From Candidatus Poribacteria bacterium (GTDB lineage: Bacteria > Poribacteria > WGA-4E > PCPOR2b), in contig OZ220744.1 in the NCBI GenBank assembly GCA_965116925.1, positions 4,128,001 to 4,192,000 of the forward strand: a stretch of 64,000 nucleotides of DNA. Direction: 5' to 3'. The stretch's first letter is position 1; each line of letters opens with the position of its first letter. This document shows positions 12,001-18,000 of the stretch, one piece after another. The position numbers were made by a program.

Positions 12001-15000
12001 ACGTGTCTGTTTCATGTTTTGCTCACATCCGTATCGTGTTAAGCGCAATCACCGTGTGTAGCAAGGGTCAGCTGGCGATTTTGAAAAACTGCCTTAGCAT
12101 ACACCAATCTACTGAGGCGAATTTGCGGTCAGATCGTCACTCGTTATCGTCGGGCACCAGAACTTTTCTATGTACGCGATGATCAGTTGGGTCCCCTCCT
12201 CGTGGCTGACATAAGGGGGCTTGAACGGATTGTACATTGCGTCAGTGAGATCCCGAACTAGTGCAACGTTGAATTGTCCTGACTGAACCATCGCTTTAAT
12301 CGCGAAAGATCTACCCAGTACACACATATTGGTGTGGACGCCCATGTAGAGTAGATTTTTAATCTCCTTTTGCTTAAGGATGTTATACACCTCTTGACCG
12401 TTGTCGCTGATGGCATCTCCATCTTTAATTTCGATTGCTGGGTGTTGACGGTGCCACGCTTTGAAGCTGTTTTCCTCGCCGGTATCCGAACCGCCATCCG
12501 ACGAATCAACTGGCTGGGGTGGATCTGGGCGTTCAATCAGATCGGGCATTTCTATATGCGGGACATCAAGGACCCAAGTCCGCGCGGGGTGCCCGTCGTA
12601 GAAATCCATCGTATCTGACGGTGCGTGAATAATCTGTATCCCTCGATCCCTGGCGGTATTAACGACAGCATTCATTCGTGGTGCCATAATATCCACACGC
12701 TCTGTTGCACCCCATGACCAGTGTTTGTTCCACATATCCACGATGACAATTGCTGTTTCGGACGGCTGCCAAAGAACTTCCTCTTCGACAACCCGCCAGC
12801 CATTGCGCCCGGTCGTCTTTGGTGCTTGTCGCAAGGTGGTTAATTGCAGCCCATCATTATCGGTGAGCTCACTTGCCCCAGATGCGAAGAGTGGAATATT
12901 GAGTATCATTGTGCGTCCTCCTTGCTTCCCGTTTTTACGAAATTCCCTTTACCATGAAGGTTGCATATACCTTTGTGGTCTTAACCAGATCTGATACACT
13001 AACCCGCTCGTTCATACCGTGGGCACCCTGTCCATTTGGACCATAACCGACGCCGGGCAGCCCCCCCTCTTCGACGAAGAAATGCAGGTCGGTAAAGCCG
13101 CTTGTCGTACTGAACTTAATTGGCTGACGACGGATGCTACGCACTGCTCGTGCAAATGCTTGAGGAAAGTGATGTTCAGGCTCCACAACGCACGGGTCAA
13201 TCTTCAATATCGAAGCCACGTCTACCTTCATTTCCGCGTCGGATTGACAGACCTCCTCAATTACCCCACGCAGCTCCGCTTCCGCCCCTGCTAGACGCTC
13301 GTTGGGGAGGATTCTCCGATCTATGGAGAAGATTGTCTGTGCAGGAACGGTATTGACCTTATCGCCCTCCGTGCCGTGAAAGATGCCGCCGATGTTAAGT
13401 GTGGGATAGCGGTCATCGCCCGAAAAGGTTTTGAAAGCACGGTCTGACGCTTTTAACTGCTGCTTCAGGGGTTGGATCCCCGTGACGAGAGCAGCGGACT
13501 TTTCAAAGGCGTTCAATCCCTTGTCTGGATTAGCGGCATGAGCTGCTTTGCCGTGAACTTTCACTTCCAACCACAATACACCGTTATGTCCCAAACCCAC
13601 GTTGAGAACAGATCCGCCTTCGCAATTGACGACATAATCTGCCTGAACCCACCCGTTGCGTACGACATGCCCTGCCCCTAGCTCGCCACCAATCTCTTCG
13701 TCGCAAGTGAGCGAACATTCGATATTGAAAGCGGGTTGAACGCCGTTCTCCTGTAGTGCTGCCATCGCAAACAGCAGGGCGGCGATAGAATCTTTCATGT
13801 CATCTGCTCCCCTACCGTAGAGCCAATCCCCGACAATCTCTGGCTTAAACGGATCGATACGCCAATCACCGGAGACAGGCACGACATCGTAGTGAGCATT
13901 GAAATGGACCGTTTTTTCTGCTCCAACGTCCCACCTCGCGATCAGGTTCATGCGCGGATAATCGTCTGCGTGTGGCACAACTGCCTGCGCTTCAGCTTGG
14001 GGGACCGGCACAATCTTTGTGCTCATGCCGAGTGCCTCGCACCGTTCCTGAAGCAGCTGCACGATTTCTGCATAGTTTGTGCCGGGCGGATTCACAGTCG
14101 GAATCCTGACCAATTCTTTCAGTGAATCGCAAAGCTGTGCCTTACCACCTTCGATGTGGTTGTATATCTTCTCCATAATCACTCCCTTTGTGGTCTCGCG
14201 GCTAGTGAATCAGATACTTTACTACTCTATAATTTCCGTTACAACTCCCATGCCAATCTTTACTTCCATCTTCTTGATCTCGAACCGCGTGCCGATTGCT
14301 AGTGCCATCGGCACATCAAGCGAAATTTGCACGGTTGCATGTTCACCCGGATTGATAATCGCAACCTCCGACGAAAGATGGAGATGACCTGTAACGTCAA
14401 TTGTCCAGAGATGGATCTCCGGCTTATCATTCCCAACAAGGGGGATATGCGTTCCACACTCCTCTTGGGTCATCACGTAAACCGCCGCCACAAATTCGGT
14501 GTGCGACTTGATGCTCTTCGGTTGTGAAACAACCTGCCCCGGCGTAATCCACCCCATTTCCGCATCGACTCGGACCTCATCTTCTGTATTTTTACCCGCT
14601 TCATCACGGTTCACGCCAATCGAGGAGGCGGCGTCGGCGTGTCGCAGACCAACGCAGCGAGTCTTAATCCGATCCCCTTTGCCGACGACATCAATCGGGT
14701 GCCCCACCGCTAGACCGCCCTGAGCCATCTCACCGTACAGTGTCGAGGTGCCTTTGGGGCTGTCAATAACCTTACGGATCGGCATCAGCAAAGGCAATTC
14801 AAGTGAATTCAGCGGCTGCGGCATGCAACGATTCATCGCGAAGATGAGATCGACAATCGGTTTCCAGTGATCCGAATTAAGATTTTGTCCCTTATAGTTA
14901 CAGGCTTTCTCCGCGTCGCCAACGATGATGGGTGACTCTTCTTCCGCATAACCGCAATCCGTAAGGATCTCACGGATCTCCATCTCGCAAATCTCGATTA

Positions 15001-18000
15001 ATTCTAGATCCTTGACCTTCTCTGCCTTGTTCAGGAAGGTGACAACCGTGGGGACACGAACTTGACTAGCGAGCCGAATCTCGGCTTCTGCTTCTGCCGT
15101 TACACCTTCGACTGCGCTCACCACCAAAATCGCGCCACGAATCCCCGGCGAATCACCGATCAACATCTTGACGTTATCTCCATGACTCATGCCATCAAGA
15201 TGTGTGTAATGTCTACCACTTGTCTCATAATCAACCGCTTTATAACTGACGTAAGTCTGTAATCCTATTGAGTGATGCGTTGGTTGCTGCGCTTCAAAAT
15301 CATCCGCATCCATCTGGGTAGAGCCAATCCGTGAAACCACCTTGATTATTCCGGCAGCCAGCATCGTTTTACCGTGTCCCACCCCGCCAAGTGTGCAGAT
15401 TGTCAACCCTTGATGTCGGTATTGCCTTTTTTCATCCATCGCTTTCCCCTCTGACAGAAATTCTGTGAACTCACTGCCCACCTACTCACTGCTCCAGATT
15501 GAAGATTGGATTGAAAGATGGTATTTGGTATTTTACCATAGAGGAGAGGGCAGAGTCCATCAAAAGAAAAATGGGGTGCGGTGGATCATTAGAGAATTCA
15601 CCTAGATTTGTAGTAGTCTACACGGTAGCAGACACTTAGTGCCTATGCTGCTTGACACTGGCTAAAGCCTCGGCACCCGGCGAAATTTTACTTGCGAACC
15701 TGATACTCGCCTACCGTCACCCCAGCTATGACAGAATTAATCCAGATTTAATGAAAAAACTTGAGAACTCCTAGTGGGAATTTGTGTCTATAATTATAAC
15801 TATACTTGTGCTTATATCGTAATATGAGTAATGTGATCGCATTCGGGGCATTTAGTTTTCAGTTTTTTAACCGATTTTGACGGATAGATAGCAGATTGAC
15901 TCCTACACCGTAGGCGGGGCATCTGGTTTCCCCGCCCGAAGAATTAAATGACCCTAGGTAATTGCATTAGAGCCTGTTGACGAATTGAATCAAATCATGT
16001 AAAATAGATCTGCCAATGTTTTCACCCTAGGACAAATATCCGCTTTGAGGGGTTTTGATGTGGCATTTCAGAAATAATCCGAGTTGCCAACACCAGTTGA
16101 CCTGTATCAGCCCCAAAGGATAAGAAACCAATTTGAGACCAGAGGAGGAAAGACAGATGCAACGGAGATATACGCTAGCACATTTCATTTTAACTGGCGT
16201 TGTAGCCTTGAGTCTAACACTGATGGTAACCGCTGACGCACAGGCACAGATTGCTTTTGTGTCTTATAGGGCTGGTCCCCCTGAAATCTACGTGATGGAT
16301 GCCGATGGGAAGAATCAGCGCAGACTTACGACTAATATCTGGGAGGACTTGCATCCCGCATGGTCTCCGGACGGTGAACGCATTGCCTTCAGTTCCGGCA
16401 GGAATGGGAGAAAGTATGATATCTACGTGATGGATGCCGATGGGAAGAATCAACAAAGACTCACTGAAAACCCCACGCGTGACTCGCATCCCGCATGGTC
16501 TCCGGACGGTAAACGCATTGCCTTCAGTTCCAGAGCGCATGGACCCGACGAAATCTACGTGATGGACGCCGATGGAAGTAATCTACAAAGACTTACTGAA
16601 GATCTTGATCATGACTGGTCTCCCTCATGGTCACCCGACGGCAAACGCATTGCCTTCATGTCCGATAGGAATGACAACTTTTTCGACTTTGGAATCTACG
16701 TGATGGACGCCGATGGGAGGAATCTACAAAACCTCACTGACAACGCCCAGGAGGACTGGTATCCCTCATGGTCTCCTGACGGTGAACGCATCGTCTTCAT
16801 GTCTCGTAGGGATGGGAACGGGGAAATCTACGTGATGGATGCCGATGGGAGGAATCAGCAAAGACTCACTAAACATGCCGAGCATGACTGGTCTCCCTCA
16901 TGGTCTCCTGACGGTGAACGGATTACCTTCGCGTCTGATAGGAATGGGAACTATGAAATCTACGTGATGGATGCCGATGGGGGGAATCGACGAAGAGTCA
17001 CTAAACATCGCCAGGATGACTTTAGTCCTGCATGGTTTACCCCTACTTTTGCAGCTGAAGTTGCACCTTTTGCAGTTGCTCCCGCAGGTAAAAAGTTTAC
17101 AATGTGGGGCTGGTTCAAACAGGGCGACAAATAACCACCACTATCACTAAAACTGTCCGGTGTTAAGAAAAACCTCACCGGTACGCTGAATTCAATTACC
17201 ATCAGATGCAATTTGAGTCCATAAAAATATCTGTATTACCGCTATTTTGTCCTGCTAAATTTGTCTTGATACACATAAATCATAGAACCCATGCAGCCAA
17301 CTGTAGGCGGGGTATCTGGTTTCCCCGCACCACTTATGCTGAAATCTGTAATCCTGAATCATAGCTTTGTTGTTACATACAGATCAACGTCTTAATTCGT
17401 CAACACGCCCTAGGAGATTGATTATGCCAACGGATCGAAATCTTATTCATCAAACGCTCAAAGGCAATCTACGGGCTTTCGACACCTTGGTCCAGAAATA
17501 TCAGCCGGTGGTCTATGCCCGGGCGCGGCTTATCGTACAAAATCCGCACGATGCCGAAGATCTAACGCAAGAAGTCTTTATCAAAGCGTATCAAAATCTT
17601 CCAAAACTGCGCGATGCCAGTCGGTTCGCCGGTTGGCTATCGCGAATTGTGAAGAATGTCTGCGTGACATGGATCCACCAGCAGAAGGAAATATCAAAAT
17701 CTTGCCCGATAGACGCGGATCCAATTGCGAGTCTGTCTGCTGCTGAGGCGACGCCGGAACAATTCCTGATGAAAAAAGAGTTGAACCAGACAATCCTGAA
17801 GGCAATTAATTCACTGCCTGCTGTGGATGGGGCGGTCGCGCACGATTTCTACATTGACCACCTCAGCTATGATGAAATCTCAGAGGAACACGGATTGTCG
17901 CATCGTGCCATCGCTAGTCGACTGCATCGCGCCAAACAACGCATCGCTCAGAAAGTCAAGCATTCGTTCAGCGCGTTTGGTATTTTCTGGAAGGATTGGG

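Follow-up and report, generated by a model that had tools for sequence, protein, structure and literature searches.

What could a bacterium that has a normal elongation factor Tu (EF-Tu) do with a second one whose GTPase motifs have degenerated? The question is raised by a gene in the window, the whole 64-kb stretch of DNA analyzed here (contig positions 4128001 to 4192000), which an earlier note had described as encoding a protein of 419 residues (14222..15481). The open reading frame exists on the minus strand and opens with a GTG, but the true start is an ATG at 15439. Conservation among 14 same-genus orthologues sets in at Met15 of the 419-residue frame, and the relatives are 386 to 405 residues long; therefore, the real coding sequence is 14222..15439 on the minus strand, with 405 residues plus stop (ATG 15439-15437, stop 14222-14224). 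The in-frame 5′ extension from the GTG (15440..15481, minus strand) is probably untranslated: its 14 residues are unconserved or missing among the same-genus orthologues, the GTG at 15481 lies immediately 3′ of a TAG stop, and a Shine-Dalgarno-like GAGGGG (15446-15451) is found 6 nt upstream of the ATG. A promoter-like site (15530..15559, minus strand; TGGACT, 18 nt, TG-TAAAAT) is a consensus match only, with 9 of 12 matching positions, and 5 sites were found where shuffles gave an expectation of 2.8.

EF-Tu is the only strong relative of the encoded protein. Its top matches among solved structures are EF-Tu throughout (E value, 7e-70), and its AF2 model (pLDDT 91.1, pTM 0.87) aligns over the full length with EF-Tu structures at TM values of 0.84 to 0.89, in agreement with the EF-Tu derivation proposed earlier. 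Pfam recognizes GTP_EFTU (2e-20) and GTP_EFTU_D3 (7.5e-17) but not domain II, as had been noted, and among 39 family members scanned, D2 was found in none (E≤0.01) and the other two domains in all 39; together with the AF2 model, these matches give the EF1-family architecture of a G domain and β-barrel domains II and III. Compared with E. coli TufA, the paralogue shares fold, length, P-loop, Asp80, Asn135, helix D, K89, and H319. It scores only 247.9 bits on the NCBIfam EF-Tu model TIGR00485, short of the equivalog cut-off of 522.4, and members from f3, g14, and g13 score 215, 103, and 51 bits, respectively. The normal tuf, also present in the genome as stated before, reaches 732 bits and adjoins fusA; the paralogue is 32% identical to it (BLASTP) and lies outside the str operon. 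Like SelB, the paralogue is EF-Tu-like and coexists with EF-Tu; however, selB is present separately in the genome (373.6 bits; 640 residues with a C-terminal extension, beside tRNA-Sec), whereas the 405-residue paralogue has no such extension and scores 47.2 bits on the selB model TIGR00475, against a cut-off of 242.

The G domain (residues 1 to 205; 14825..15439, minus strand) matches GTP_EFTU over residues 12 to 194 and is modeled with pLDDT values above 88. Residue states were counted in an alignment of 136 relatives, in which positions such as 61, 83, 138, and 173 are E. coli EF-Tu numbers. The G1 P-loop GGVGHGKT (residues 18 to 25; 15365..15388, minus strand) is retained, with GK[ST] in 133 to 134 of the 136 rows, and in a sliding comparison with the canonical consensus the P-loop and helix A are the most retained stretch (0.76, versus 0.32 overall); Asp80 is conserved across the relatives. 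Switch I is among the least retained stretches (0.02), and the switch-I Thr at position 61 has become Gly (74 rows), Tyr (38), or Ser (18). Switch II reads DGMSH (residues 82 to 86; 15182..15196, minus strand) instead of DCPGH, the family census being DCETH 42, DGLSH 26, and others; the DxxG Gly83 is Ser in 62 rows, Thr in 61, and Gly in 3, which places a hydroxyl residue there in 123/136, and His84 is mostly kept (108/136). G4 is NKAE (residues 137 to 140; 15020..15031, minus strand) instead of NKxD, with NKAE in 37 rows, NTGG in 15, NTRN in 14, NQTE in 10, NTRD in 5, and others, including NPRN and N[IV]HN; Asn135 persists in 134 rows, Lys136 in 53, and Asp138 in 17. G5 is GDA (residues 174 to 176; 14912..14920, minus strand) instead of GSA(L), and Ser173 is replaced by Asp in 129/136. 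The degenerate switch II and G4 described in the earlier note were thus found again, and the residues of the EF-Tu GTP switch, Thr61, Gly83, Asp138, and Ser173, have been replaced across the relatives. With GxxxxGK[ST] present and G2, the G3 Gly, NKxD with its G4 Asp, and SAL with its G5 Ser lost, the protein has by sequence the motif pattern of a pseudo-GTPase.

The proposal that the paralogue gave up the GTPase cycle agrees with the missing switch residues but is too blunt for a protein whose P-loop and helix A are its best-retained parts. Since GK[ST] is kept in nearly all rows, most lineages probably still make use of phosphate binding. The pattern of P-loop, Asp80, Asn135, hydroxyl residue 83, His84, and the new invariant Asp173 looks like a nucleotide site under selection and would fit an altered rather than a dead NTPase. 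An active P-loop NTPase, cycling with a rebuilt effector loop and with its base specificity shifted to ATP or any NTP, could form its working site from these residues, which rank among the best conserved, and its rewritten switch I is conserved inside the family (P53 and H56 in 121/136 rows). In families f1 and f2, G4 is NK[AS]E or NQ[TS]E (NKAE 37, NKSE 7, and NQTE 10 rows), resembling the NxxE that replaces NKxD in the TRAFAC-class P-loop protein YchF/Ola1 and is linked there to ATP preference (review PMC8779481). YchF/Ola1, however, belongs to another family with another architecture, and NxxE is not family-wide in the paralogue, being absent from f3 and f4. We consider such an enzyme rather unlikely: G4 varies across the family (NTGG, NTRN, NPRN, N[IV]HN) and therefore no single base-reading solution has been kept, Thr61 and Gly83 of the spring-loaded switch are gone, and four genomes have no P-loop at all in a gene that is still under purifying selection.

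The other half of an EF-Tu cycle is the carriage of aminoacyl-tRNA. Domain II (residues ~210 to 305; 14525..14812, minus strand) keeps its β-barrel in the AF2 model, has no Pfam match, and has its aminoacyl-pocket residues replaced. E215, D216, F218, T228, E259, R262, and N273, which we take to form the aminoacyl/A76 pocket of EF-Tu, are every one replaced in the relatives, and these segments are among the least retained of all (identity to the canonical consensus, 0.02 to 0.06). In the 136 rows, E215 has become R/Y/H, T228 R/Y/K, and E259 R/K, and E. coli positions 261 to 273 are deleted in 84; in the window's protein, the canonical 260-273 hairpin site holds an f1-specific disordered insert (residues 271 to 283; 14591..14629, minus strand; pLDDT <50) that f2 to f4 lack. 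Domain III (residues 309 to 405; 14225..14515, minus strand) corresponds to GTP_EFTU_D3 and carries the family-invariant Trp345 and Lys389-Lys390-Met391, the Trp and K378 each occurring in 136/136 rows. H66 is missing, and so are the T-stem-face residues R318, T320, and R333; R333 is Trp in every row. K89 and H319 are kept in 136/136 and 134/136 rows; in EF-Tu, these residues contact the 5′ end and the T stem of the tRNA, and given their retention the paralogue may bind some RNA.

These two residues would suit a protein that carries or protects a single special tRNA, whether charged or uncharged, or a tRNA-like RNA, for a nonribosomal use and that has a rebuilt acceptor-end pocket. So would the exchange of acidic pocket residues for basic ones (E215 to R/H, E259 to R/K, and also T228 to R/K), a change known from SelB and the engineered EF-Sep, carriers of acidic aminoacyl groups. 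A role of this kind, which the earlier note had offered as one of its options in the form of a special (aminoacyl-)tRNA, nevertheless seems improbable, because the pocket hairpin is deleted in most rows and takes the form of a disordered loop in the protein encoded here, H66 and the T-stem-face residues are gone, and no net shift toward basic residues was seen in domain II. The tRNA complement of the genome is ordinary as well (48 genes, no orphan), its sole special tRNA being the tRNA-Sec served by SelB, and without Thr61 and Gly83, GTP would not be expected to induce the closed state in which the tRNA cleft forms. Of the roles proposed before, that of a regulator or scaffold would fit best.

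The paralogue is carried by 139 of 140 sampled genomes of families f1 to f4 (G080 included by tree position; G091, which is 86% complete, gave a canonical-level match only), and by 0 of 11 sampled genomes of other members of the phylum (f5 to f9), a broader distribution than the sample of the earlier note had covered. The host order consists of sponge-associated Poribacteria that keep it beside normal EF-Tu, and it is vertically inherited there as a single copy. The lineage had been called order-wide, which describes this order well, but a less derived sister form also occurs in a neighboring two-genome order. The paralogues form a separate second EF-Tu clade (SH-aLRT 100) on a stem of ~2.9 changes/site, and the earlier view that their divergence greatly exceeds that of ordinary tuf duplicates thus stands. 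Constraining them to group with Poribacterial tuf gave a better likelihood (+17.7) and was not rejected (p-AU 0.805); most likely, they descend from a Poribacterial tuf gene.

Forms in G154, G214, and P0126 keep GHxxHGKT, NKID, GSA, and [VI][DE]DVF and have DCV[ND]H and a Pro at position 61; they cluster with the paralogue clade (SH-aLRT 100) and carry its signatures W333, KK, GND[KR], YETSGK, and W[KQ]PI. In the form of the neighboring order, Thr61 and Gly83 are lost, and NKxD, SA, and the aminoacyl pocket are kept. At the other extreme, the P-loop is deleted in one sublineage, where four genomes of g13/g14 were examined, with the gene intact and under purifying selection (dN/dS, 0.13 to 0.17); this argues against nucleotide binding there. 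Together, the less derived sister form and the P-loop-less sublineage suggest a stepwise decay and a retained function that would not depend on nucleotide binding everywhere. A Poribacterial tuf would have been duplicated before the two orders split, and the γ-phosphate readers Thr61 (switch I) and Gly83 (DxxG) would have been lost first. In the window's order, guanine recognition (the NKxD Asp and SAL Ser) and the domain II aminoacyl-A76 pocket would have followed, and the P-loop would have gone last in one sublineage. From these successive losses we infer that the protein no longer carries aminoacyl-tRNA under the control of GTP.

The progressive erosion of catalytic and specificity motifs in each sublineage might also be read as the slow decay of a duplicate without a function of its own. 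We find this hardly credible, since reading frames are intact in 139/140 genomes of the order (most of the stops reported within matches fell in the 5′ extension of the query), dN/dS is 0.07 to 0.11 in 15 pairs with unsaturated dS (of 18 pairs, the 3 most distant being saturated) and 0.07 to 0.17 with the P-loop-less form, and many family-specific residues are invariant. The gene is also found in RNA libraries: metatranscriptome-library contigs from two studies carry it, which establishes presence rather than transcription.

Neighboring genes had been described as not conserved; this applies between families, but within families they are conserved (19 loci). A conserved neighbor or fused domain indicating a partner was looked for at the paralogue loci, and none was found; fused or longer forms were likewise absent at E≤1e-60, and the paralogue is a stand-alone protein with no added domain. 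A protein with the shape of EF-Tu but not its function could serve as a decoy or sink for EF-Tu-targeting molecules (competitor toxins, phage proteins, or antibiotics) and so shield the real EF-Tu, an idea with which its near-identical pieces in sponge-metagenome libraries would agree. It appears very improbable, as PADLOC models gave 0 matches for six proteins (the paralogue and its neighbors), no toxin or immunity neighbor is conserved and neighbors vary between families, and the strict vertical single-copy inheritance over the whole order is unlike that of defense genes. Moreover, Thr382 and the R58-G59-I60-T61 loop, which we assume to be target sites on EF-Tu, have changed: Thr382 is replaced by R/K in 110/136 rows, and the loop is rewritten.

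We therefore lean, with somewhat better than even confidence, toward an EF-Tu-derived pseudo-GTPase that acts as a nonswitching binding or adaptor protein. GTPase switching and aminoacyl-tRNA binding are deduced, from residue patterns, to have been lost, and the role of an adaptor is deduced as well. Selection maintains the fold, helix D, the new invariant residues of domains II and III, and, in most lineages, the P-loop, which probably serves as a site for phosphate or nucleotide that is structural or constitutive. Helix D (residues 145 to 161; 14957..15007, minus strand) is retained as in canonical EF-Tu and is identical to it at D142, E144, L145, E152, E155, and L157 (E. coli numbers), where the SelB of the same genome differs. 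In EF-Tu, it is the face contacting L7/L12 and EF-Ts, and by analogy it may be an interface here. The adaptor most probably would still work within the translation apparatus, with domains II/III and helix D as putative interfaces.

A second EF-Tu gene beside the main one is likewise found in Streptomyces (EF-Tu3/tuf3) and nematode mitochondria (EF-Tu1/2); these keep the GTPase motifs, which the Poribacterial paralogue has lost. They are functional elongation factors that are stress-expressed, antibiotic-resistant, or specialized for odd tRNAs, as given in a survey of translational GTPases (PMC4342817), where Poribacteria have 0 occurrences. A parallel in mode is Ski7, the yeast Hbs1 paralogue of the EF1 family, described in PMC4509514 as a nucleotide-binding, apparently nonhydrolyzing adaptor with unusual polar residues at catalytic and γ-phosphate positions. 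Ski7, however, is a eukaryotic protein that still binds guanine nucleotides and bears an extra N-terminal adaptor region, whereas the Poribacterial protein has no extra region and lost the guanine-specific residues and, in one sublineage, the P-loop; the resemblance is limited to evolutionary mode, with no orthology. The archaeal SelB/EF-Tu/aIF2-γ-like MM1309 is similarly an orphan EF1/SelB-family paralogue, which is reported to bind GMPPNP and GDP and, in its GTP form, Cys-tRNACys (PMC4329189), but it is archaeal and no close relative of the Poribacterial paralogue.

Two of the contigs from RNA libraries, X1 and X4, carry 39 differences across ~3.5 kb and end at 15500 and 15494, respectively, near the promoter-like site; the X5 pieces show 2 to 3 differences in 306 to 420 nt. 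The libraries with near-identical pieces of the gene are labeled sponge metagenome.

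The gene under study lies in an open frame of 419 codons (window positions 14222..15481, minus strand) that begins with a GTG immediately after a stop codon. The frame in the earlier note exists, but its start has to be moved: among same-genus orthologues, residues 1 to 14 vary or are absent and conservation runs from Met15 onward, and database relatives are 386 to 405 aa long, so we take the gene to be 14222..15439 (−), encoding 405 aa. The ATG is preceded, at 6 nt, by GAGGGG. Pfam recognizes an EF-Tu G domain (E = 2e-20) and domain III (7.5e-17) and leaves domain II unmatched, the same pattern that had been noted before; the score on the NCBIfam EF-Tu model, 247.9 bits, lies below its cut-off of 522.4, and every strong match among solved structures is an EF-Tu (best E value, 7e-70). 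The same 6.47-Mb single-contig genome (G000) has the normal tuf that the note gave; it scores 732 bits and lies immediately after fusA, and the genome encodes SelB as well (373.6 bits; cut-off, 242). Descent and fold place the paralogue in the EF1 family; it is not filed as EF-Tu, because all the defining EF-Tu features that were tested fail except the P-loop. Within this very well known family it forms a new subfamily, with three decay stages preserved.

To describe its anatomy, 136 family rows were aligned with E. coli TufA, whose numbering is used for the sites below; they comprise 118 representatives from databases, each 380 aa or longer, and 18 genome-translated proteins, some possibly duplicated, with the metagenome protein P0126 as one row. 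The P-loop GK[ST] is retained in 133 to 134 rows, Asp80 in 135, and Asn135 in 134. Thr61 is replaced by G (74 rows), Y (38), or S (18), and Gly83 by S (62) or T (61), with G left in 3; His84 is kept in 108 rows, Lys136 in 53, and Asp138 in only 17, which bears out the altered switch-II and NKxD motifs described in the earlier note, while Ser173 has become Asp in 129. In the pocket, E215, D216, F218, T228, and E259 are all replaced. Residues 261 to 273 are deleted in 84 of the 136 rows (families f2 to f4), and the window's family has a variable insert in their place, which is disordered in the AF2 model (pLDDT below 50 at residues 271 to 283 of the model). A sliding comparison with the canonical consensus, in which sites were not chosen beforehand, gave an overall identity of 0.32, with the highest value at the P-loop and helix A (0.76, residues 22 to 36) and the lowest at switch I (0.02, residues 44 to 58); values were similarly small at 254 to 283 (0.02 to 0.05) and 214 to 228 (0.06). 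In the site-by-site alignments the canonical set was small and mixed, which makes the canonical frequencies rough. The earlier note had considered that the protein might bind a special (aminoacyl-)tRNA; this reading is disfavoured, since the pocket is erased, residues of the T-stem face are lost, and the tRNA genes of the genome form an ordinary set.

Other parts have been kept or rebuilt. Helix D retains D142, E144, L145, E152, E155, and L157, in a stretch where the SelB of the same genome differs, and new family-invariant residues have appeared (among them Cys15, Cys151, Trp192, Trp297, Trp345, which corresponds to Arg333 in EF-Tu, and Lys389-Lys390-Met391; the paralogue's own numbers). The AF2 model of the paralogue (pLDDT 91.1, pTM 0.87) superposes on EF-Tu over its full length with TM scores of 0.84 to 0.89, so domain II is predicted to be still a barrel despite the Pfam miss. 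These scores refer to the open, GDP form, and the closed GTP form (1exm) reaches only 0.51; the open conformation was not taken as evidence, because the genome's canonical EF-Tu, folded in the same manner, is also open (0.93 to 0.96 versus 0.57 to 0.61). The net charge of domain II shows no basic shift that would be a sign of RNA binding, and the ESM Atlas returned EF-Tu and EF-1alpha clusters only.

A less derived sister form is represented by P0126, by a gene of genome G154 (L179:6001-7191; 85% identical), and by one of genome G214 (L196:420-1655; 59% identical). Its domain II is of full length, and it retains GHxxHGKT, NKID, GSA, and the pocket motif [VI][DE]DVF, but has already lost Thr61 and Gly83 (DCV[ND]H, with Pro at position 61). 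Family signatures that it shares are Cys15, YETSGK, W[KQ]PI, PKSI, GND[KR], Trp333, and [NK]K at 377 and 378. G154 belongs to the same phylum as G000, since searching the phylum of G154 gives the genomes and coordinates already obtained in the distribution survey, and both genomes of its order have the less derived form; G154 itself holds this form and a canonical tuf, and no derived copy. The tree separates 18 paralogues and two intermediates from all canonical EF-Tu (SH-aLRT 100) and places the canonical tuf of G154 as sister to that of the window's order (SH-aLRT 92). At the other end of the series, the P-loop is deleted, leaving VVG-[DE][RK]S[YN]DL, in the paralogues of genera g13 and g14 (L052:8093-9295 in G080, L194 in G152, L195 in G151, and L051:6862-8019 in G147); these frames are intact, with dN/dS values of 0.13 to 0.17. 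On these sequences, living lineages would preserve three stages of decay, namely, switch-dead but guanine-binding, base-blind, and P-loop-less.

The distribution was examined in 151 genomes of the phylum, 140 from families f1 to f4 (the window's order) and 11 from f5 to f9. A paralogue-grade match in addition to the canonical match was found in 138 of the 140; the copy in G080 is very divergent (33% identity) and is placed within the paralogue clade by the tree, and G091, a genome that is 86% complete in 590 contigs, has a canonical-grade match alone. The second match is absent in all 11 f5 to f9 genomes, eight of which have one canonical-grade match and three none at E <= 1e-40; a canonical EF-Tu query found one EF-Tu each in five of the 11. 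The order-wide presence proposed earlier is thus upheld on a larger sample. Among 1.84 billion cluster representatives, the score falls from 816 bits for the family to 310 for P0126 and to at most 210 for ordinary EF-Tu; therefore, close relatives beyond these are absent. A search at E <= 1e-60 gave no longer or fused forms, a result that counts as weak evidence. Separately, metagenomes yield many single EF-Tu-length proteins (P0136, P0146, P0160, P0210, and others) with odd switch-I/II motifs such as DYSSH, DFKSY, and DCSSH, 39 to 55% identical to E. coli EF-Tu; Asp138 of NKxD is retained in 47 of 50, and they may be other degenerate EF-Tu lineages or poor gene calls.

The stem of the paralogue clade measures about 2.9 changes per site, and a free tree search put it on an arbitrary canonical branch (Cytophagia), which was not read as a donor. 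A tree uniting the paralogues with Poribacterial tuf is better by 17.7 in log-likelihood and is not rejected (p-AU 0.805). Within the clade, f3, f4, and f2 are recovered as groups and f1 is unresolved, a grouping by family that is expected under vertical descent. The data are compatible with the simplest history, a single tuf duplication in the ancestor of the two orders and then stepwise loss.

Pairwise dN/dS against the window's paralogue is 0.07 to 0.11 in 15 of 18 pairs, dS being saturated in the other three. Simple decay of a duplicate, against which the earlier note had also argued, is contradicted by these values. The gene was further found in contigs from metatranscriptome libraries of two studies: in sets X1 and X4 one contig spans 12002 to 15500 and 15494, respectively, with 39 differences from the window, and in X5 there are pieces of 306 and 420 nt with two to three differences. 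The paralogue is real, conserved, and in use, and is now better documented than before, its presence in RNA libraries being short of proof of transcription. Positions 15496 to 15863 have almost no depth across four RNA libraries, and the X1 and X4 contigs end at 15500 and 15494; as a transcript start this gap is at most a weak hint from one study and is not counted as a finding.

The losses appear to be ordered: the gamma-phosphate readers would have gone first, base recognition and the aminoacyl pocket second, and the P-loop last and only locally. Strong selection throughout, together with the new invariant residues in domains II and III, is what would be seen if an enzyme-like factor had become a binding protein. 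Because of these ordered losses, the sustained selection, and the new residues, the paralogue is most likely an EF-Tu-derived pseudo-GTPase adaptor, and in most lineages a phosphate or nucleotide is probably still bound in a structural role. The most serious rival is an NTPase of altered specificity, for which speak the well-kept nucleotide site, the new invariant Asp173, and an NxxE-like G4 in f1 and f2 that recalls YchF/Ola1 (consulted part of PMC8779481); G4 varies between families, however, and a lineage without the P-loop persists. A decoy or defence role is supported neither by gene context nor by PADLOC.

The contact of EF-Tu to L7/L12 or EF-Ts is made through helix D, and since this helix is retained, the pseudo-GTPase adaptor may still meet either of them. 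On a bolder reading, which we consider rather doubtful, it would be a pseudo-translation-factor that neither carries tRNA nor switches with GTP, docks on the ribosomal stalk or EF-Ts via helix D and the rebuilt domains II and III, and in this way adjusts translation or puts it on hold in symbionts of sponges that grow slowly; if so, it would be an independently evolved bacterial counterpart of Ski7 and other eukaryotic adaptors derived from elongation-factor paralogues. Ski7, the paralogue of yeast Hbs1, binds GTP, seemingly without hydrolysis (consulted section of PMC4509514), and offers the closest parallel to the way in which the paralogue evolved. EF-Tu-GDP is described, in the portion of PMC10901736 consulted, as binding Balon on ribosomes; a Balon-type hibernation partner is not supported in G000 with the two models used, eRF1_3 and baeRF_family10, both of which are unmatched there, although the latter does find Thermus.

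Few proteins are as conserved or as well studied as EF-Tu. The consulted part of a survey of translational GTPases reports few bacterial duplications in the EF-Tu family, all of working factors, including the divergent ones (PMC4342817), whereas the present paralogue fails the tested EF-Tu features except the P-loop. No description of this gene, of any EF-Tu paralogue with degenerate G motifs, or of a bacterial EF-Tu pseudo-GTPase was found in a literature search of incomplete coverage, with few subscription journals. If the adaptor reading is right, the family would be a bacterial pseudo-GTPase made from a core translation factor, a natural series for the order in which a translational GTPase loses parts yet remains useful, and a marker gene and possible translation regulator for abundant, uncultured sponge symbionts.

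In agreement with the earlier note, no gene neighbourhood is conserved across families. In genus g1, the paralogue is followed on the same strand by genes for an M20 peptidase (12935-14182, −) and an isochorismatase-family protein (12109-12909, −), and all three are spanned by a single RNA-library contig in both X1 and X4. In G154, too, an M20 gene is located two genes past the less derived form; the two peptidases are non-orthologous (30% over 125 aa) and G000 carries four M20 genes, so the association was treated as chance. Rfam gave no match at E <= 1 within 13500-16500 or in the 650-bp AT-richer spacer (15482-16132; GC 0.42) between the paralogue and a divergent gene for a PD40 (WD40-like beta-propeller) repeat protein (16133-17134, +), inside which RNA-library contigs show many joints resembling mis-joins between its own repeats. 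The product of the gene at 10642-12048 (−), 468 aa long, has an N terminus resembling a signal peptide, about eight D[VL]YAQR...G...W repeats, and no Pfam match at E <= 0.01. Elsewhere in G000, four EF-G-sized proteins (693 to 715 aa) with EF-Tu-type G domains are encoded at C1 positions 371085, 3742231, 4197819, and 5848568 (L005 to L008); one of these genes starts about 6 kb past the end of the window, which occupies contig positions 4128001-4192000, and only the tuf-adjacent one is the str-operon copy. Aragorn reported no tmRNA in G000; the 48 tRNA genes are otherwise ordinary, and tRNA-Sec (C1:2373929-2374022) immediately adjoins selB (2374978-2376042).
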